From Candidatus Rokuibacteriota bacterium (lineage in GTDB: Bacteria; Methylomirabilota; Methylomirabilia; Rokubacteriales; CSP1-6): a DNA stretch of 64,000 nt. The stretch is from contig JACPDG010000051.1 of assembly GCA_016184125.1 (NCBI GenBank), forward strand, positions 7,983 through 71,982. Reading direction: 5' to 3'. A model generated the notes under the pieces. It was not told the origin of the DNA. It saw nothing but the letters and a program-made list of their open reading frames with translations, and did not search any database. Shown here one piece after another: positions 1 through 30,288 of the stretch. Made by a program: the position numbers and the translations under genes. Numbering within the stretch: position 1 is the stretch's first letter; every line of letters starts with the position of its first letter.

Positions 1-998
1 AGTTCGTGCCGGTCCGGTACTTCGACCTGGTGACGGAGTTCGTCCGCGGCGGCCATTGGGCGCCCGATGCGGTGCTGATCCAGACGTCCCCGCCGGACGC
101 GCACGGCTACCTGTCGCTCGGGGTGTCCGTGAGCGTCGCTCTGCCCGCCGCGCAGCGTGCCCCGCTCGTGATCGCGCAGGTGAATCCCCGCATGCCGCGC
201 ACGCTCGGCAACGGCAGCCTCCACCGGAGCCAGATCGACGTCGTCGTGGAGGTCGACGAGCCGCTGCTGGACTACCCGCCGCCCGTGGTCGGGGAGCTCG
301 AGACCGCGATCGGGCGGCACGTCGCCGGGCTCGTTCCGGACGGGGCCACCGTGCAGGTCGGGATCGGCGCGATCCCGCAGGCGGTCCTGGAGGCACTCGT
401 GGACCACCGCGACCTCGCGCTGCACTCGCTCCTGGTCGACTCGGCGGTCACGCTCATCGAGCGTGGTGTCGTCACCGGCGCGCGCAAGCGGTTCCATCGG
501 GGGCGCATCGACATCGGCGAGATCATGGGCACCCGGCGGCTGTTCGACTTCGTCCACGAGCACGACCTCGTGAACATGGAGCCGGCGAGCTTCACGCACG
601 ACCCGCATCTCGTGGCCGAGGTCGGCCGCTTCGTCGCGGTCAACTCCGCGCTCGAGATCGACCTCACCGGGCAGGTGACGGCCGAGAGCCTCGGCCCACG
701 ACAGGTGGCCGGGATCGGCGGACAGTTCGACTTCGTGCTGGGCGCCTCGCGCGCCGACGGCGGCGTGTCGGTGATCGCGCTTCCGTCGACGGGCCGCGAC
801 GGGCAGGTCTCGAGGATCGTGCCGCGGCTGGCGGCCGGCGCGGCGGTGACGACGCCGCGGTTCATCGCCGACGCGATCGTGACGGAGTTCGGTGTCGCCC
901 GGGTGCGGGGCCTCGGAGAGCGGGGGCGGGCGAGAGCGCTGATCGCCGTGGCCCACCCCCGGTTCCGGGAGGAGCTGGAGCGCAGTCTCGCTGGCTAG
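1..998 (+). CDS. Acetyl-CoA hydrolase / 4-hydroxybutyrate CoA-transferase family protein, 5' truncated by window edge
   Basis: Motifs DAHGYLSLGVSV, ATVQVGIGAIP, VNSALEIDLTGQV, SGIGGQ-like GIGGQFDF, IVTEFGVA. Confidence 0.9.
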   Translation, partial: FVPVRYFDLVTEFVRGGHWAPDAVLIQTSPPDAHGYLSLGVSVSVALPAAQRAPLVIAQVNPRMPRTLGNGSLHRSQIDVVVEVDEPLLDYPPPVVGELETAIGRHVAGLVPDGATVQVGIGAIPQAVLEALVDHRDLALHSLLVDSAVTLIERGVVTGARKRFHRGRIDIGEIMGTRRLFDFVHEHDLVNMEPASFTHDPHLVAEVGRFVAVNSALEIDLTGQVTAESLGPRQVAGIGGQFDFVLGASRADGGVSVIALPSTGRDGQVSRIVPRLAAGAAVTTPRFIADAIVTEFGVARVRGLGERGRARALIAVAHPRFREELERSLAG

Positions 999-1225
999 CC
1001 GCGCTTCGCGGCGTCGATCTCGGCGAAGATCTCCTCGTCCGTCGGGAAGCGGTACGTCGTCTGGTTCGAGTAGGCGGTCCGGCCGTCGATGTCCACCTCG
1101 AAGATTCCGCCCGCGCCCTCGATCAGCTCAGCGGTGATGCCGTACTTGTTCTTGATGGCGGCCTGCAAACTGGAGGCCTGTGGGAGGTAGTTTCACTCGC
1201 CGCAGTACTTGATCCGGATCTCCAT
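995..1225 (-). CDS. SelW/SelT/SelH (Rdx family) selenoprotein, 76 aa, CxxU motif with in-frame UGA at 1195-1193
   Basis: Manual translation MEIRIKYCGE-U-NYLPQASSLQAAIKNKYGITAELIEGAGGIFEVDIDGRTAYSNQTTYRFPTDEEIFAEIDAAKRG; GxGGIFEV and RFP Rdx motifs follow the TGA; GAGGAGG RBS upstream. Confidence 0.88.
1155..1179 (-). promoter_or_regulatory. Candidate bacterial SECIS hairpin 3' of the Sec codon
   Basis: GGCCU-C-CA-GUU-UG-C-AGGCC stem-loop; apical loop begins with G about 22 nt after UGA. Confidence 0.5.
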
Positions 1226-1254
1226 GCTCCGTCCTCCTCGTTCGACGTTGATGG

Positions 1255-1263
1255 ATTCTAGCA
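1255..1263 (-). promoter_or_regulatory. Extended -10 promoter (TGCTAGAAT) for the selenoprotein gene
   Basis: TGnTAnnnT match about 30 nt upstream of ATG 1225. Confidence 0.55.
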
Positions 1264-1318
1264 TCTTGAGATGCGGTGACGGCCGATGCGGATTCGCCGC
1301 GCGCCCCGGTATAGTGAG

Positions 1319-1366
1319 AGTTCGAGCAACAATCGACCGCCGCGGCGGTCGGTTGTTGCTCGAACT
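1319..1366. repeat. Palindromic REP-like element, family 2, copy 1
   Basis: AGTTCGAGCAACAATCGACCGCCGCGGCGGTCGGTTGTTGCTCGAACT near-perfect palindrome; homologous copy at 29138-29183. Confidence 0.8.
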
Positions 1367-1395
1367 GAGTTGCCGGGGAGGAGGGCAACGAAGCC

Positions 1396-2316
1396 ATGCG
1401 ACGCTCATCGGCGCCGCGGGTGCGCGCGGTGATCGACACGGACCCGGGGATCGACGACGCCCTGGCCCTGCTCTACGCCTGGCGCTCGCCTGACATGGAT
1501 GTGCGGGCGGTGACCACCGTCGCGGGCAACGTGCCGGTCGACGTCGCGACGGCGAACGTTCTGAGGCTCGCCGCGCTCGCCCGCGCCGGCGTCCCGCGCG
1601 TCGCTGCGGGCGCCGCGAAGCCCCTGGCGCGCGCGCTGACGACCGCGACGCACTACCACGGCGAGGACGGTCTCGGTGACGTCGGCGGCTGGCCGGCGAT
1701 TCACGCCGAGCCGGTCGGTGCCGACGCGGTGGACGTCCTCGTCGCCGCAGCACGCGAGCACGGCCCGTCACTCACCCTCGTCGCGCTCGGCCCGCTCACG
1801 AACGTCGCGATGGCCGTGCAGCGCGACGCCGGCGCGGTGCGAGGCGTCGGCCGTGTCGTCGTGATGGGAGGCGCCGTCGACGTCCCGGGCAACGTCACGC
1901 CGACCGCCGAGTTCAACGTGCACGTCGACCCGGAGGCGGCCGCCATCGTCCTCGATGCCGGGCTCCCGCTGGACCTGGTCCCGCTGGACGCGACCCGGCA
2001 GGCCGTGCTCGATCGGGCGCGGTTCGAGACCGCGGCGGCCCGATCCCGTGCCCCGGGAGCGAGCCAGCTCGTGCGATGCACGGCGCGCGGGTTCCGGGTG
2101 GACCACGCGCGCGGCACGCATGGCATGGTGCTCCACGATCCGCTCGCGGTCGGCGCTGCGCTCGACCCGACGCTGATCGAGTGGGAGCCGGTCAAGGTGA
2201 CCGTCTCGTCGGCGGGCGAGACCCGACGCGTGCGCGGCCGGCCCAACTGCCGGGTCGCGCGGCGTGTGGACGCCGACCGGTTCATCATGACGTTCCTGGA
2301 ACGGCTGCTTCCGTGA
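1396..2316 (+). CDS. Inosine-uridine preferring nucleoside hydrolase
   Basis: IDTDPGIDD, LGPLTN, AEFNVHVDPEAA, LHDP motifs. Confidence 0.93.
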   Translation: MRRSSAPRVRAVIDTDPGIDDALALLYAWRSPDMDVRAVTTVAGNVPVDVATANVLRLAALARAGVPRVAAGAAKPLARALTTATHYHGEDGLGDVGGWPAIHAEPVGADAVDVLVAAAREHGPSLTLVALGPLTNVAMAVQRDAGAVRGVGRVVVMGGAVDVPGNVTPTAEFNVHVDPEAAAIVLDAGLPLDLVPLDATRQAVLDRARFETAAARSRAPGASQLVRCTARGFRVDHARGTHGMVLHDPLAVGAALDPTLIEWEPVKVTVSSAGETRRVRGRPNCRVARRVDADRFIMTFLERLLP

Positions 2317-2326
2317 CGAGGAGCCG

Positions 2327-3388
2327 ATGGTCACTTCGAGCCTCCCGCGAGACGAGCGCGTGAATCGCGCGCGCGTCCTGGTCATCGGCTCGGCGAACGT
2401 CGACTTCGTGGTCACGGTGCCGCGCCTGCCCGCGGCGGGCGAGACGGTGTCCGAGGGGACCCTGCTGATCAATCGCGGCGGCAAGGGCGCGAACCAGGCG
2501 GTGGCTTCACGGCGTCTCGGCGCCGACGTGCGCCTGATCGGCTGCGTCGGGAGCGATCCGTCGGGGGAGAGTATCCGGTCGGCGCTCGAGGGCGAGGGGA
2601 TCGGGATCGCGGGGCTCATGTCCACTACCGAGGCAGCGACGGGCACCGCCCTGATCATCGTCGACGCCGAGGGGCGCAACCAGATCGCGGTCGCCCCCGG
2701 CGCGAACCGGCGGCTCACCGTGGACGATGTACGCGCCCGGGAGGACGACCTCCGGTGGGCGCGCGTCGTCATCGGGTCGCTCGAGGTGCCGCTTCCCGCG
2801 GTGCGTGAGGCGTTCACGGTCGCGCGCGGTCACGGCGCCATCACGATCCTCAACCCGGCGCCCGTGCCGGCCACGCCGATCGACTTCTGGCCGCTCGTCG
2901 ATTACCTCACGCCGAACGCGGGCGAGGCGGAGCGATTGAGCGGGGTCCCGGTGCGGGATCAGCCCTCGGCCGCGCGGGCGGCGTCGGTCCTCCGCGAGCG
3001 CGGCGCCGGCACGGTGATCGTCACGCTCGGCGGCGACGGCGCGCTGCTGGTCACTGCCGACGGCGTCGGCCACGTGCCGGCGTTCACCGTGACGGCGATC
3101 GACACGACGGCGGCGGGCGACGCATTCAATGCCGGCCTCGCGACCGGTCTCGCGGACGGACGTCCGCTCACGGCCGCCGCCCGGTTCGCGAGCGCGGTCG
3201 CCGCGCTGGCGTGCACGCGACGCGGCGCGCAGGACTCGCTCCCGACACGGGCGAGCGTCGAAAAGATTTTATGGGGGGACTATCGAAGCCCCCCAAGCCC
3301 CCCACGCTCGGAGCCGTCCCGGGAGGGGTGCGCGGACGCACCCGTGGTGCGCGGACGCACCTGCGAAACCCGGGACCGCCCTCGATGA
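2327..3388 (+). CDS. rbsK: Ribokinase (PfkB family); C-terminal ~39 aa encoded by a repeat element
   Basis: GGKGANQAVA, NPAP, DTTAAGDAF motifs; adjacent to nucleoside hydrolase. Confidence 0.92.
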   Translation: MVTSSLPRDERVNRARVLVIGSANVDFVVTVPRLPAAGETVSEGTLLINRGGKGANQAVASRRLGADVRLIGCVGSDPSGESIRSALEGEGIGIAGLMSTTEAATGTALIIVDAEGRNQIAVAPGANRRLTVDDVRAREDDLRWARVVIGSLEVPLPAVREAFTVARGHGAITILNPAPVPATPIDFWPLVDYLTPNAGEAERLSGVPVRDQPSAARAASVLRERGAGTVIVTLGGDGALLVTADGVGHVPAFTVTAIDTTAAGDAFNAGLATGLADGRPLTAAARFASAVAALACTRRGAQDSLPTRASVEKILWGDYRSPPSPPRSEPSREGCADAPVVRGRTCETRDRPR

Positions 3389-7444: not shown

Positions 7445-8523
7445 ACCGCATCGTCGGCACGGGGATCGCCGTGCCGCCGACCGTCGTGGACAACGGGCTC
7501 CTGTCGCGCTGCATGTCGACGACCGACGAGTGGATCGTCCAGCGCAGCGGTATCAGGCAGCGTCACGTGTCGCCGGACACCTGGCGGATGCTCCAGCGCC
7601 TGGCGGAGGCGCCGGACAAGCCGGCGTTCATGGACTCGGTGTTCGCCCAGGGGCTCGACGGCTGCATCGACTCGTCGATGACCGTGACGGACCTCGCGCT
7701 CGAAGCGAGCGCGATGGCGCTCAAGGCCGCGGGCATCCGCGCGCAGGAGCTCGACTGTATCGTCGAGTCCTCGACCCTGCCGGACCTGGCGTACCCGCAC
7801 ACGGGGTGCGTGCTGCAGGGACGGCTCGGGCTCACGAGCACGCCCGCGATCAGCCTCCAGCAGGGGTGCGCCGGCTTCGTCTACGGGCTGGCCATCGCCG
7901 ACCAGATGATGCGCGGCGGGATGTACCGCCAGGTCCTCGTGGTGGGTGCCGAGCTCCTGTCGAGCGCGTTCGATTACACCGACCGCGGCCGAGACATGGC
8001 GGTCCTGTTCGCCGACGGTGCGGGGGCGGCGGTCGTGCGGGCCGAGACCGGCAACCGCGGCGTGATCTCGAGTCACCTGCACTCCGACGGCACGATGATC
8101 GACGCGCTGTCCGGCGAGCTGTGTGGGTCCTCGACGTTCCCGCCGGTCTCGAAGAAGAAGATCGACGACGGCCGGGCGCGTCCGCGGATGAACGGCCGCC
8201 AGGTCTTCGTGCACGCCGTCCGGCGCTTCCGCGAGGTCATCCTCGAGTGCGTCGAGGCCAACGGCATCACGCTCGGCGACGTGGATCGCTTCGTCGTGCA
8301 CCAGGCGAATCTCAGGATCATCGAAGCGGTGGGCGACGCGCTCGGCATCCCGCCCGATCGCTTCTTCAACAACATCGAGCGCTTCGGCAACACCGCCGCC
8401 GCGTCGGTGCCCATCGCGTTGCACGAGGCGCTCGCGGCCGGCGCGATCCGCGACGGGGACCTCGTGATGCTCGCGTCGTTCGGCACCGGGCTGTCCTGGG
8501 GCGCGAACATGATCCGCTGGTAA
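7441..8523 (+). CDS. fabH: 3-oxoacyl-ACP synthase III
   Basis: Cys-His-Asn triad: GCAGF, HQANLRI, GNTAAAS; LFADGAGA; ATGA overlap with upstream gene. Confidence 0.9.
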   Translation: MNRIVGTGIAVPPTVVDNGLLSRCMSTTDEWIVQRSGIRQRHVSPDTWRMLQRLAEAPDKPAFMDSVFAQGLDGCIDSSMTVTDLALEASAMALKAAGIRAQELDCIVESSTLPDLAYPHTGCVLQGRLGLTSTPAISLQQGCAGFVYGLAIADQMMRGGMYRQVLVVGAELLSSAFDYTDRGRDMAVLFADGAGAAVVRAETGNRGVISSHLHSDGTMIDALSGELCGSSTFPPVSKKKIDDGRARPRMNGRQVFVHAVRRFREVILECVEANGITLGDVDRFVVHQANLRIIEAVGDALGIPPDRFFNNIERFGNTAAASVPIALHEALAAGAIRDGDLVMLASFGTGLSWGANMIRW

Positions 8524-8744
8524 TCGCCGGCCGGCCTCGACGGCCCCTTCGACCTCCCGCGAGTGCGCGGGTAAAGCTTCAGCTCGCCGCCTCGACCGAC
8601 CGTCGCTGGAGCGGACCTGCCGCTGGATAACCGCCCGGCGGATGAAAATAGTACAAAGCACCTATAGACCCCGACAGGACAATCGGCAAGGCTGAAGCAC
8701 TTGACGCTTCCTGACTCGGGACCAACGCGCGGGGCGCGGAACCC

Positions 8745-10592
8745 GTGTCGCGCCACGTCGCGACCGCGCCCGCCATGTTTCTCGGCTCGGACAGGAGCCC
8801 CATGGGTGAGGAAGACCGGCAGCGTCTGACGCTCGTCCAGCGGTTCGGCCTGCTCAGCCTGCCGTGGGTGATCGGCCTGACGATCGCGCTCTGTGGCATC
8901 GCCGCCGCGCTGCTGACCGACCAGATCGTCCGGCATGAGGCGATCGACCTGGGCGAGATGCTGCAAGTCCTCATCCCCAGGGTTCTCGATCCCGAGGCGT
9001 TCGACAAGCCACCCGGAACGGCCCCCGGGATCGCCCGCGCGTTCGAGGAGCTGGCGCCCTCGAGGTCGATCGTGCGCGTGATCGTGTACGACCGGCGTGG
9101 CCGCGTCCTCTGGTCGGACGACAAGACGCTGATCGGCGGTGAGTACCCTGACAATCCGAAGCTGCAGGCCGCGCTGCGCGGTCGGCTGGACGCGTCGATC
9201 ATTCACCCCGGCACCAGCGCCGAACCCCACCACGCGGCGCTCAGGGGGTCCGATCGGCTCCTCGAGATGTACGTGCCCGTGCGATTCGGCCGCAACGCTC
9301 CGATCGTCGGCGCCGTCGAGCTCTACCGCGACGCGCCAGGGGTCCTCGTCCTGCTCGATCGCAGCGTGGGTATCCTGTGGGTGCTCGGCGGCCTTGCGGG
9401 TGCGGCGCTCTACGTCATCCTGGTCGTCATCGTCCGCCGGGCCTCGGCCCGGCAGCTCGCCCTGGAGGGGCAGCTCCGGGCGCACGCGCGGGACCTCGAG
9501 GAGCGAGTCGCGGAGCGAACCGCCGCACTGCGCGAGACCGGCGCCCGCTTGGAGAACGTCCTCGAGAGCTCCGCGGACGCGATCGTGACCCTCGACCAGC
9601 GGGGTGTCATCGCCTTCGCCAACCGCGCCGCGGTGCGGATCTTCGGTTACAGCCAGGACGCGCTCGTCGGGACGCGCCCGGCCACGTACTGGCTACACGG
9701 GCGCCGCGACTTCCGCGCACTGCGCCGCGCTCTGGTCAGGAACGAGCGCGTGGAGAACCACGAGACCGAGCTGCGGGCGGCCGACGGGCGCACCGTCATC
9801 GTCGACGTGTCAGCGTCGCTGCTGCGCTGCCCGCGGCGCGGCGTCACCGGTGCGGTGGGCGTGCTGCGCGATGTCACGGAGCTGCGCGCGCTGCACGAGC
9901 AGATGCTCCGGACCGAGCGACTGGCGACGGCCGGCCTCCTGGCGGCCGGGGTGGCCCACGAGGTGGGGAACCCGCTGATGTGCATCTCCTCGGTGGCGCA
10001 GGTTCTCAAGAAGCAGAGCACCGTGCCGGCCGTCCAGCGCGGCGTGGACGAGATCCAGCGCCACGTCCAGCGCATCGCCCGCATCGTGCGCGATGTGAGC
10101 CGCGTCGCACGGTCGTCGCGCCTCCAGCTCCGGACGGTCGCGGTCGAGGACGTGCTCCGGACAGCGGTCGACCTCGCACGGCACGTGCCCGGAGCGCGGG
10201 CGATCTCGATCGACGTCGAGTGCGAGACGGGGATGCCGCGTCTGCGCGGCGATCCCGACCGCCTCGCCCAGGTCTTCCTCAATCTGATCCTGAACGCCGT
10301 GGACGCGGGTGCCAACCTGACCGTGCGCGCCACCGCGCGCGATGGCGATGTGCGGGTGGTCTTCACGGACAAGGGACCGGGGATCGGGCCGGAGACTCTG
10401 GCGCGGGTCTTCGACCCGTTCTTCTCGACCAAGGCCGATGGCCACGCGGGCCTCGGTCTCTTCGTGAGTCGAGAGACGATCCGCGAGCATGGCGGGCTCC
10501 TGCTGGTGGAGAGCCGTCCAGGGCACGGCTCGACGTTCACGGTGCAGCTGCCGGTCGATCGGATCACGGAAAAGGCAGAGTGGCGGGAATGA
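8745..10592 (+). CDS. Membrane PAS-domain sensor histidine kinase (NtrB-like)
   Basis: Two TM segments, PAS (DAIVTLD...NRAA), H-box AHEVGNPL, N-box QVFLNLILNA, G-boxes DKGPGI and GLGL. Confidence 0.92.
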   Translation: MSRHVATAPAMFLGSDRSPMGEEDRQRLTLVQRFGLLSLPWVIGLTIALCGIAAALLTDQIVRHEAIDLGEMLQVLIPRVLDPEAFDKPPGTAPGIARAFEELAPSRSIVRVIVYDRRGRVLWSDDKTLIGGEYPDNPKLQAALRGRLDASIIHPGTSAEPHHAALRGSDRLLEMYVPVRFGRNAPIVGAVELYRDAPGVLVLLDRSVGILWVLGGLAGAALYVILVVIVRRASARQLALEGQLRAHARDLEERVAERTAALRETGARLENVLESSADAIVTLDQRGVIAFANRAAVRIFGYSQDALVGTRPATYWLHGRRDFRALRRALVRNERVENHETELRAADGRTVIVDVSASLLRCPRRGVTGAVGVLRDVTELRALHEQMLRTERLATAGLLAAGVAHEVGNPLMCISSVAQVLKKQSTVPAVQRGVDEIQRHVQRIARIVRDVSRVARSSRLQLRTVAVEDVLRTAVDLARHVPGARAISIDVECETGMPRLRGDPDRLAQVFLNLILNAVDAGANLTVRATARDGDVRVVFTDKGPGIGPETLARVFDPFFSTKADGHAGLGLFVSRETIREHGGLLLVESRPGHGSTFTVQLPVDRITEKAEWRE

Positions 10593-11896
10593 AGCCGTCG
10601 ATCTTGGTGGTGGACGATGAGTCGACGCTCCAGGAGACCCTCCGGTGGACCTTCGAGCACAACGGCTGGCGCGTGGTCGTGTCGGGCACGGGCGAGGAGG
10701 CGATCAGGTGCCTCAAGACCGATCGCTTCGACATCGTCGTCACCGACATCCGCCTGCCCGGTATCGACGGTATCGAGGTGCTCCGCTGCGCTCGCTCGCT
10801 CGTGGCGCGGCCACCGGTCGTGCTGATCACCGCGTACGGGACCGTCGAGACGGCGGTGGCCGCGCTTCGCCACGGGGCCGCCGACTACATCCTGAAGCCG
10901 TTCGATCTCGATGACCTGAAGGCGCGCGTGGAGCGCCTGGTCGACGACACAACCGCGACGAGGCGGCGCTGGGCCGACCCGCTCGGCGAGATCGTGGGTC
11001 AGACCCCGGGGATCCAGGCCTTGCGACAGCAGGTGCAGAAGGCCGCGATGACGAGCAGCAACGTGCTGATCACGGGTGAGACCGGCGCCGGGAAGGACCT
11101 GGTCGCGCGGAGCATCCATGCTGTGAGTGTCAGGCACGCCCATCGGTTCGTCGCGGTGAACTGCGGCGCTGTCCCGGACACGCTGTTCGAGAGCCAGCTC
11201 TTCGGCCACGCGCGCGGGGCCTTCACCGGTGCCGTCCAGGCCAACCCCGGGCTCATGGTGGCCGCCGACAAGGGCACGCTCTTCCTCGACGAGGTCGGCG
11301 AGCTGCCGTTGCTGCTGCAGGTCAAGCTCCTGCGCGCGCTCGAGGCCAAGGAAGTGTGGCCGGTCGGGCAGACACGCGCCGTGCCGACCGACTGCCGCAT
11401 CATCGCGAGCACGAACCGTGACGTCGAGGCCGAGGTCGCGGCGGGCCGCCTGCGTGCGGACCTCTTCTACCGCCTGAAGGTCGTGCACATCACCGTTCCG
11501 CCGCTGCGCGAGCGGCGGGCCGACATCCCACTCCTGGCCAAGCACCTCCTGTACCAGATCAACGGGCGGCTCGGCACCTGCGTGGCCGGTGTCGAACCCG
11601 ACGCGATGCACGCCCTGATGAACCACGACTGGAAAGGCAACGTCCGCGAGCTGCAGCACGCGCTCGAAAGCGCCATCGTCAACGGCGCCGACGAGCGCAT
11701 CACGCTCGAGGCCCTTCCGCGCGACGTGAACCCGATGGCGGCCCAGATACCGCTCAAGGAAGCGACGCGCCAGTTCGAGCGAGCGCGGGTGCTCGAGGCG
11801 CTCGCACAGACGGGCTTCGACAAGCGGGAGGCGGCCCGCCTGCTCGGGCTCAGCATGGCCTCGCTCTACCGCAAGCTGGACGATCGTTCGGAGTAG
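10589..11896 (+). CDS. Sigma-54-dependent response regulator (REC-AAA+-Fis HTH)
   Basis: ILVVDDE, TDIRLPG, Walker A GETGAGKD, GAFTGA, WKGNVREL, SLYRKL. Confidence 0.95.
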   Translation: MKPSILVVDDESTLQETLRWTFEHNGWRVVVSGTGEEAIRCLKTDRFDIVVTDIRLPGIDGIEVLRCARSLVARPPVVLITAYGTVETAVAALRHGAADYILKPFDLDDLKARVERLVDDTTATRRRWADPLGEIVGQTPGIQALRQQVQKAAMTSSNVLITGETGAGKDLVARSIHAVSVRHAHRFVAVNCGAVPDTLFESQLFGHARGAFTGAVQANPGLMVAADKGTLFLDEVGELPLLLQVKLLRALEAKEVWPVGQTRAVPTDCRIIASTNRDVEAEVAAGRLRADLFYRLKVVHITVPPLRERRADIPLLAKHLLYQINGRLGTCVAGVEPDAMHALMNHDWKGNVRELQHALESAIVNGADERITLEALPRDVNPMAAQIPLKEATRQFERARVLEALAQTGFDKREAARLLGLSMASLYRKLDDRSE

Positions 11897-12384: not shown

Positions 12385-12462
12385 ACGGAGCACCCGCCGC
12401 TATAGGTCAATGTACCTGTTTTTCTGGCGATTTAATGATGCGTATGCGTCATCGTGCGGCCG

Positions 12463-12478
12463 CGGCATTCCCGGTGCA
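12463..12478 (+). promoter_or_regulatory. Candidate sigma-54 promoter P2 for the oxidase operon
   Basis: CGGCATTCCCGGTGCA with correct GG/GC spacing; AT-rich tract 12401-12440 lies between it and UAS set 2. Confidence 0.5.
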
Positions 12479-12621
12479 CTACGCCGCACCGCGTATTCGT
12501 CGCTTCGCCGACGAGCTCGCATCTCTGCGCAGGTCCACGAGGAGTGCCTCACGCGAAGGAGGGACTGATGCGGAGCGGACCGGTCCACGCGCAACCGACA
12601 CGACGCAAGGAGAGACGCACG

Positions 12622-29119: not shown

Positions 29120-29137
29120 AGGGTTCCCCGCGCCGTC

Positions 29138-29183
29138 AGTTCGAGCGACAATCGACCGCCGCGGGTCGATGGTCGCTCGAGCT
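29138..29183. repeat. Palindromic REP-like element, family 2, copy 2
   Basis: AGTTCGAGCGACAATCGACCGCCGCGGGTCGATGGTCGCTCGAGCT; homologous to 1319-1366. Confidence 0.78.
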
Positions 29184-29184
29184 C

Positions 29185-30288
29185 TCAGCGCGCGCCGGAC
29201 CACTCGAGGAAGGCGACGGACGCGCCGCCGGGCGCGTCCCGTCGTTGCACGACCGCGGTGATCCTGGCGCCGACCCGTCCGTCGACTTGACCCTCCGCCT
29301 CGATGCGGAACGTCTGGGTGATGACACCGACCCCGCGCGCGCCGAACTGCCCGGGGACGCCGGCGTAGGGCCCCTCGCAGCGGGCCTGGAGGACGAGGTT
29401 GGTCTCGGCGTCGGCGAGGCCATACGCCTGGAGCACCTCACGCCGGGCCGTGTTGAGGTTCGCCCGGCCTCCCGACTTGACCGCGACGAGCGGCGCCAGC
29501 TTCTCGAAGATCTCGGGCGTCACCCCCTTGATCTGGCGGAGCTCCTCGATGGAGTCGAGGTTGCCGTTCTTCGACCGGTACGGGACCTCTCGCTCGAGGT
29601 ACGTGTCCTCGCTCTCCGCGCCGTTGAGGCGATACTCCTCGTTGGGATCCCGCCAGTCCTGGATCGACGCGACGATCGTGTCGCGCTCGCTCTTGTCGAT
29701 CTCGAGCTGCTGCAGGAGGCGGTCGAGGCGGTCGGGCCGCGTGGTGTTCAGGTTCAGGCGTGACTCCTCGTCGGTGATGACGTACGAGAACGTCCCCCCG
29801 GCGAGCGGCACGTCCTGCCGCGGCAGCCTGGGGATCTCCGTGCGATCCGCCCGGTAGAACGTGAGCGGGCCGTCGTTGCACGAGGCGGCGAACCGGACGT
29901 CGCCGACGATCTCGCGCACGGCCTGCTCGACCGCCGCCTCGGCCAGGTGCGCGCCGATCACCGCCTCCTTGTACGCGCGGACGGCCGACGCTTCCAGGCG
30001 CATCGAGAACGCGAACTCGGCGCCGACGACGCCGAGCAGCGCCATGACGAGGAGCACCGCGACGAGCGCGAACCCGCGCTCGCGCGCCGGGTCCCGCGGA
30101 CGACTCTCGGAGCCGGTGAACGAATCCGGAACCCGAGGGGCGGCCCGGGTTCCCCGGGTGCGTCCTCGCACCCCCCGGGCCGCCTCCGAGCGCGGGGCCG
30201 GGGGAGTACGAGGGGGGCGTGAGCCCCCTTCGTACGAATGTCGGGGGCTTCGATAGTCCCCCCATGAAAGTAGTCCCCCCGTGATCAT
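29185..30288 (-). CDS. gspK: T2SS minor pseudopilin K; leader extended by repeat copy C
   Basis: RG/FALVAVLL (no E5, typical of GspK), DEESRLNLN, DWRDPNE, SIEELRQIKGV; ATGA overlap with gspJ stop. Confidence 0.88.
   Translation of the reverse strand: MITGGLLSWGDYRSPRHSYEGGSRPPRTPPAPRSEAARGVRGRTRGTRAAPRVPDSFTGSESRPRDPARERGFALVAVLLVMALLGVVGAEFAFSMRLEASAVRAYKEAVIGAHLAEAAVEQAVREIVGDVRFAASCNDGPLTFYRADRTEIPRLPRQDVPLAGGTFSYVITDEESRLNLNTTRPDRLDRLLQQLEIDKSERDTIVASIQDWRDPNEEYRLNGAESEDTYLEREVPYRSKNGNLDSIEELRQIKGVTPEIFEKLAPLVAVKSGGRANLNTARREVLQAYGLADAETNLVLQARCEGPYAGVPGQFGARGVGVITQTFRIEAEGQVDGRVGARITAVVQRRDAPGGASVAFLEWSGAR
30110..30281 (-). repeat. G6/C6-hairpin repeat family 1, copy C (long subtype, duplicated head)
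   Basis: GGGGGGACTACTTTCATGGGGGGACTATCGAAGCCCCCGACATTCGTAC...GGATTCGTTCACCGG. Confidence 0.88.

Follow-up and report, generated by a model that had tools for sequence, protein, structure and literature searches.

Selenoprotein W-like (SelW-like) proteins have been listed among the prokaryotic selenoprotein families since 2005, when the Sargasso Sea selenoproteome was described (PMC1088965), and a study of the evolution of selenocysteine (Sec) in bacteria from 2006 remarked that they have few or no cysteine homologues in Sec-using organisms (PMC1794560). A stem-loop in the coding region just 3' of the UGA, whose apical loop is small and has a G in it, is a general feature of the bacterial Sec insertion sequence (SECIS) (PMC1088965). 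Here we describe a gene of this type in a stretch of 64,000 nucleotides from Candidatus Rokuibacteriota bacterium (GenBank assembly GCA_016184125.1, contig JACPDG010000051.1, positions 7,983 to 71,982), which is called the window in the following. All coordinates are positions in the window unless a contig is named, and all features of the selenoprotein gene are on the minus strand. The gene covers positions 995-1225, and we regard it as almost certain that it is a genuine, functional SelW-like (Rdx family) selenoprotein gene.

Like the bacterial SelW-like selenoproteins described by Zhang, Gladyshev and co-workers, the product has a CxxU motif right after the first beta strand of a small, in our case predicted, thioredoxin-like fold, the gene has a hairpin with a G in the apical loop downstream of an in-frame UGA, and Cys orthologues in Sec-using organisms are few or absent. 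Unlike the surveyed bacterial members it is a short form of 76 amino acids, Sec is found in every orthologue-bearing genome sampled of the order, and the synteny is conserved; the host lineage, Rokubacteria/Methylomirabilota, is absent from both surveys (PMC1088965, PMC1794560). The minimal length of about 70 amino acids is shared with the short SelT/SelW/SelH family typified by Campylobacter (NF041051, SelTWH_Campy), but the score lies under the equivalog cut-off of that model and the product is therefore not a member by NCBI's criterion. Several bacterial Cys forms have solved structures, namely Atu0228 (2fa8), Bordetella Q7WAF1 (2ojl), the Vibrio cholerae protein 2p0g, the Pseudomonas proteins 2obk and 2oka, and Streptomyces SAV_2001 (3dex). 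They have the same fold, and their YC-x-x-C aligns with YC-G-E-U here; in contrast to the 76-residue product they carry CxxC, are about 100-108 amino acids long and share only 20-29% identity with it, and no function has been defined for any of them. Mammalian selenoprotein W (2npb) and MIEN1/C17orf37 (2ljk) are also Rdx family proteins with the CxxU/CxxC motif at the same position. Eukaryotic SelW depends on a SECIS in the 3' untranslated region and on eukaryotic decoding factors, whereas the candidate element described below lies within the coding region, shortly after the UGA.

The coding sequence runs from the ATG at 1225-1223 to the TAG at 997-995. Direct translation with the TGA read as U gives MEIRIKYCGEUNYLPQASSLQAAIKNKYGITAELIEGAGGIFEVDIDGRTAYSNQTTYRFPTDEEIFAEIDAAKRG. 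Codons 8-11 are TGC GGC GAG TGA (C-G-E-stop/U), and the TGA at 1195-1193 is followed by 65 further open codons before the TAG. This UGA is assigned as the Sec codon of residue 11 (the second of two redox positions in C8-G-E-U11) from its conservation in orthologues, its alignment with Cys in relatives and the agreement between assemblies, while the reading of the whole coding sequence draws on translation, family models, a structure model and orthologues. A ribosome-binding site, GAGGAGGA, is found at 1232-1239 with a spacer of 6 nucleotides to the ATG, and orthologues have a purine-rich equivalent at the same distance. An initial annotation of this DNA had described an ATG with a strong ribosome-binding site, the string C-G-E-TGA and a frame open to the TAG at 995, and the sequence agrees with it in every detail. 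It had also seen that this TAG overlaps the TAG of a convergent CoA (coenzyme A)-transferase gene, the two sharing the CTAG at 995-998, and that the listing of open reading frames (ORFs) misses the gene: under translation table 11 only a 57-residue ORF is listed (995-1168, start TTG at 1168). The protein database entry for the contig of the window (P0004) has the same 57-residue form. The tryptic peptide across the UGA position of the full product would be YCGE-U-NYLPQASSLQAAIK.

Profile and structure searches were carried out with U read as C. The product scores 57.3 bits against the Pfam Rdx model PF10262 (cut-off 22.6), with positions 1-73 of the 74 profile positions covered, and 50.3 bits against the NCBIfam model TIGR02174, CXXU_selWTH (cut-off 34.2). 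The match to CxxU SelW-like proteins of the Rdx family suggested by the initial annotation, which had proposed exactly this kind of hidden Markov model search with U as C, is thereby borne out above both curated cut-offs. The best-scoring named model is NF041051 (81.6 bits, residues 3-70). A phmmer search of the PDB sequences gave matches to MIEN1 (2ljk), which is the best one with an E-value of 1.1e-5, and to Atu0228 (2fa8), SAV_2001 (3dex) and mouse SelW (2npb). In 2ljk, 2fa8 and 3dex the residue aligned with the TGA position is the second Cys of CxxC; homologues without Cys or Sec at this position had been named beforehand as an argument against a selenoprotein, and it is CxxC that is found instead.

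An AlphaFold2 model was built from an alignment of 33 orthologue sequences and reached a predicted local distance difference test (pLDDT) value of 97.1 and a predicted template modelling score (pTM) of 0.86. The elements of the model are a strand at residues 3-8, a helix at 14-28, strands at 33-37, 42-46 and 49-53, and helices at 54-57 and 63-75. The product is accordingly predicted to be a minimal thioredoxin-like fold in the order beta1, C8-G-E-U11, alpha1, beta2-beta4 and alpha2. As C8-x-x-U11 is flanked by the strand 3-8 and the helix 14-28 in the predicted model, it would be at the classical active-site position of the thioredoxin fold. This model, a predicted and not a solved structure of the 76-residue product, was compared with the PDB using Foldseek. 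The first 21 chains all belong to SelW-related proteins of bacteria (2fa8, 2ojl, 2obk, 2oka, 2p0g, 3dex), most of them with a TM-score (TMq) of 0.77-0.90, the lowest being 0.69, and with root-mean-square deviations of mostly 1.1-1.6 A. The next ranks are taken by MIEN1 (TMq 0.83) and mouse SelW (TMq 0.69), followed by thioredoxins at a TM-score of about 0.5.

Orthologues were collected in a first set of 41 genomes, consisting of the window's own genome and 40 relatives. A match was found in 35 genomes; 34 of these (the own genome and 33 relatives) have exactly one in-frame TGA, and the one match left over is fragmentary and sits at the end of a contig. All 34 loci have an ATG, GTG or TTG exactly 10 codons before the TGA, preceded by a purine-rich motif resembling a ribosome-binding site (AGGAGG or a close variant), and at many of them this start codon is the sole possible one in frame. 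The recurrence in all 34 loci means that the arrangement is more than chance. The motif around the TGA is YCxE-U-[N/D]Y. The 34 orthologues are at 53-81% protein identity, and Y7, C8, E10, U11, Y13, P15, Q16, A17 and S18 are invariant, C8 and U11 being so in the protein alignment of 33 sequences as well as at the codon level (34/34). The named database relatives and contig records are metagenome-assembled genomes (MAGs) labelled 'Candidatus Rokubacteria / Rokuibacteriota / Methylomirabilota'.

A larger sample of the phylum comprised 201 genomes, including the window's own. An orthologue is carried by 124 of them, always with exactly one TGA and never with Cys, and all 124 belong to the window's order. 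Such a consistent use of Sec agrees with the remark on the scarcity of Cys forms (PMC1794560). Stop-free matches in the same sample were confined to 8 distant Rdx paralogues with 31-40% identity to residues 3-66. They occur in genomes G057, G076, G111, G134, G173, G117, G112 and G065, some of them in families without the Sec orthologue; the window's own genome yielded no such paralogue. The Rokubacteria-type SelW-like gene is also present, at 69-75% identity, in six records (L076, L093, L103, L104, L112 and L117) that are labelled Binatia, Nitrosotalea (an archaeon), Verrucomicrobiia, Dormiibacterota and Acidoferrum, and these are likely to be mislabelled or contaminated MAG bins. The scan of contig records used patterns specific for the orthologue group and matched mainly Rokubacteria/Methylomirabilota records, so it carries no information on other phyla.

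If the TGA were a true stop, the locus would be a pseudogene, or the real product would be the 57-residue ORF from TTG 1168 with the 10 codons in front of the TGA not being protein. Gene calling with table 11, which returns this ORF and nothing longer, speaks for such a reading, as do the hundreds of entries of 55-63 amino acids of this sort in the databases, many of which JGI labels 'selT/selW/selH-like putative selenoprotein'. These short entries, however, begin at differing, arbitrary codons just past the TGA. The 57-residue form is devoid of strand beta1 and of the CxxU redox centre, and TTG 1168 has no ribosome-binding site ahead of it, whereas ATG 1225 has a strong one. Moreover, the 10 codons are conserved as protein in 34/34 orthologues with synonymous changes: Y7 is TAC or TAT, position 9, where it is Gly, is GGC, GGA or GGG, and E10 is GAG or GAA. 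Because these residues vary synonymously, the codons before the TGA must be under selection at the protein level. Nor would a nonsense mutation become fixed at the same codon in 124 genomes, and we consider a true stop at this position very improbable.

Downstream of the UGA we find a hairpin, GGCCUCCAGUUUGCAGGCC, at 1160-1178. It starts 14 nucleotides after the UGA and folds, at minimum free energy, into 5 + 2 base pairs with two single-C bulges; the apical loop is GUU (1170-1168), and the loop G is 22 nucleotides after the UGA. The codons in the hairpin are fixed, with Ala17 as GCC in 34/34 sequences, Ser18 as TCC in 34/34, Ser19 as AGT in 31/31, Gln21 as CAG in 33/33 and Ala22 as GCC in 30/30, while fourfold-degenerate codons (Ala, Gly, Pro, Thr) elsewhere in the gene have an entropy of 1.0-1.6 bits. 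For Leu20, 24 sequences use TTG, and both AGT and TTG are rare codons at a GC content of 70.7%. This comparative signal is strong and shows the hairpin to be constrained at the RNA level. All 7 pairs are formed in 29/34 sequences, and in three sequences an A-U pair is changed to G-U. Four variants with Glu for Ala22 lose two pairs and gain a register-shifted stem of 7 base pairs, and one variant with Glu for Gln21 has a stem of 6 base pairs, so that a hairpin of some form is present in each of the 34 orthologues. With its G-first loop and its frozen sites, the hairpin fits a bacterial SECIS.

A further, independent hint is that in the Logan contigs of four groundwater runs the word depth rises 5-8-fold exactly over the region of the UGA and the hairpin (1142-1221). 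We read this rise as k-mers common to many co-occurring Rokubacteria, that is, as ultraconservation of the SECIS region at the nucleotide level.

The host genome (a groundwater Rokubacteria/Methylomirabilota MAG; 4.09 Mb in 121 contigs, 92.8% complete, 70.7% GC; the window is on contig C19) was searched for the Sec machinery. selD (338 bits), selA (596 bits) and selB (367 bits) are all above the curated cut-offs, and ARAGORN reports a tRNA-SeC(tca) at C13:12454-12551, adjoining selA and selB. The three form a same-strand cluster at C13:7800-12551, with selB at 7800-9683, selA at 9723-11078 and the tRNA gene at 12454-12551. The selD gene of the host (C39:33770-34711; L001:1483-2520) has an in-frame TGA of its own in MTGKDIRLTSYASCAG-U-ASK, a position (SCAG-U-ASK) which we take to be the known Sec/Cys position of SelD; to judge by its sequence, the SelD of the host is itself a selenoprotein. 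The initial annotation had expected the host to use Sec and selA, selB, selC and selD to be present in the genome, and all four are found, selD with its TGA.

The same genome data bear on an alternative genetic code in which TGA stands for a standard amino acid, namely Trp or Gly. In its favour, the aligned position is W in the database proteins P0002 and P0005 and G in P0003. Yet TGA terminates 4113 of the 5931 ORFs of at least 300 codons in the host genome and is the commonest stop there, and 13/34 orthologues of the Rdx gene themselves end in TGA. Since it is the main stop of long ORFs and also a terminator of these orthologues, TGA is not reassigned in the host. The position is furthermore a redox Cys/Sec in the family and not Trp or Gly, and a full Sec machinery is present along with the SECIS-like hairpin. 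An alternative code thus appears extremely improbable, and the best explanation for the entries with W or G is that gene callers produced them as artefacts of code 4/25 predictions on metagenome contigs. P0002, P0003 and P0005 had been considered as 'full-length' Cys forms of the protein and were rejected as such, owing to the W or G at the TGA position.

A third alternative is that the in-frame TGA arose by mis-sequencing or misassembly of a TGC or TGT Cys codon. Nothing but the general possibility of such errors in a MAG can be brought forward for it, and it is practically negligible: zero differences are seen over 1151-1214 in contigs from four independent runs of a single groundwater study, and the TGA recurs in the other 33 genomes of the first set as well as in every one of the 124 genomes of the phylum sample that bear the orthologue (the window's own among them). 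Between 950 and 1400 the contigs of these four runs show no reported variant letters. An intergenic deletion of 2 nucleotides at window position 1304 is seen in the contigs of two of them, and it is strain-level variation outside the gene. Each of the three alternative explanations is contradicted by several independent results.

For the Sec gene, decoding may be pictured along the established bacterial pathway. With the hairpin at 1178-1160 acting as SECIS, SelB-GTP carrying Sec-tRNA(Sec) would dock on the apical loop and would deliver Sec to the ribosome at the UGA (1195-1193), in place of termination by release factor 2. SelA would make the Sec-tRNA(Sec) from Ser-tRNA(Sec), with SelD supplying the selenophosphate. 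From the family we infer that Cys8 and Sec11 may form a reversible selenenylsulfide, and that the protein is probably a thiol-dependent oxidoreductase.

A number of observations weigh against reading the locus as a functional selenoprotein gene with a SECIS. We know of no bacterial SelW-like protein with a known biochemical function or physiological substrate. With 81.6 bits the product misses the equivalog cut-off of NF041051, which is 88, and the gene is not filed in that family. The runs that hold the stretch are DNA (groundwater) metagenomes only, with no RNA run among them. As for the hairpin, its folding z-score on its own is modest (-1.87), and no Rfam model matches it in a scan of 900-1450 at a permissive E-value. 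It also shows no two-sided covariation among the 34 sequences, being so nearly invariant that no paired changes occur; as strict covariation is absent, its support comes from the frozen synonymous sites and the register-shift variants.

The genes around the Rdx gene are all on the plus strand. The 3' part of an acetyl-CoA hydrolase/transferase gene is convergent with it (3-998, TAG at 996-998; PF13336 with 179 bits and PF02550 with 36.7 bits). On the other side, two divergent genes encode an inosine-uridine nucleoside hydrolase (1396-2316; PF01156 with 277.7 bits) and a PfkB/ribokinase-type kinase (2327-3388; PF00294 with 231.8 bits). The convergent CoA-transferase is kept in 33/34 orthologous loci, and the upstream divergent hydrolase and kinase are found in 27/34 and 28/34 loci, respectively, both counts being limited by flank length. 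Over the interval 3-3388 (compared with loci L016-L048) the members of the order share this arrangement of genes, even where the identity of the CoA-transferase has dropped to about 58%. Within the window's family the two convergent genes have stop codons that touch or overlap, so that a terminator would not fit between them.

A putative extended -10 promoter element, TGC-TAGAAT, is located on the minus strand at 1255-1263, 29 nucleotides upstream of the ATG of the Rdx gene. Many relatives have similar hexamers (TAGAAT, TACAAT or TATCAT) at a similar distance, several of them with TTGACA 17 nucleotides upstream. The element is given as putative because a scan of the window with the sigma-70 consensus found no full site and called no promoter at the Rdx gene. 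The selenoprotein gene appears to be a transcription unit of its own (monocistronic).

The intergenic region bounded by the Rdx start (1225) and the hydrolase start (1396) contains a near-perfect palindrome of about 55 nucleotides (1314-1369), consisting of AGTTCGAGCAACAAcCGACCGCCG followed by CGGCGGTCGaTTGTTGCTCGAACT. It is a dispersed repeat with dozens of copies of 85-100% identity on many contigs of the host genome, and a second copy in the window is at about 29136-29187; the assembly word depth at the palindrome is several-hundred-fold above that of its flanks. The palindrome was not found in the orthologous intergenic regions of relatives, and it looks like an insertion of the repetitive extragenic palindrome or miniature inverted-repeat transposable element (REP/MITE) kind. 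An operator of the divergent genes was considered for this site (about 1314-1369) and rejected, as the sequence is a multi-copy repeat absent from those regions. The only Rfam matches in 900-1450 were chance microRNA-like ones on the palindromic repeat, and none of them was to a SECIS family.

Conserved synteny is the sole functional hint on hand for the gene, and within one order it may reflect simple inheritance. A more far-reaching idea, which we rate as rather unlikely, is that the Sec orthologue serves as a dedicated redox partner of a neighbouring enzyme, for example by keeping a catalytic thiol reduced, and that the nearly invariant hairpin defines a lineage-specific SECIS consensus. 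If the former were true, it would give a bacterial SelW-like protein a defined physiological role for the first time; if the latter were true, the consensus would be usable to find the rest of the Rokubacteria selenoproteome.

A full-text literature search for Rokubacteria together with selenocysteine gave no paper that treats the selenoproteins of the lineage, the mentions being incidental and none of them concerning this gene. Novelty is confined to the lineage, to the strictly Sec-only status throughout the order and to the conserved synteny; the selenoprotein family itself has long been known, and the gene leaves the knowledge of selenoprotein biology unchanged. The main value of the finding is in annotation, since hundreds of entries are truncated (55-63 amino acids) or contain a spurious W or G, and the correct product of 76 amino acids restores the redox centre. 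The unusually clean orthologue group (124 genomes, always Sec and never Cys), together with the hairpin frozen at the nucleotide level, is a good training example for a lineage-specific SECIS model. For the organisms, the gene is one more piece of evidence for routine use of selenocysteine by Rokubacteria, an uncultured lineage of soil and groundwater.

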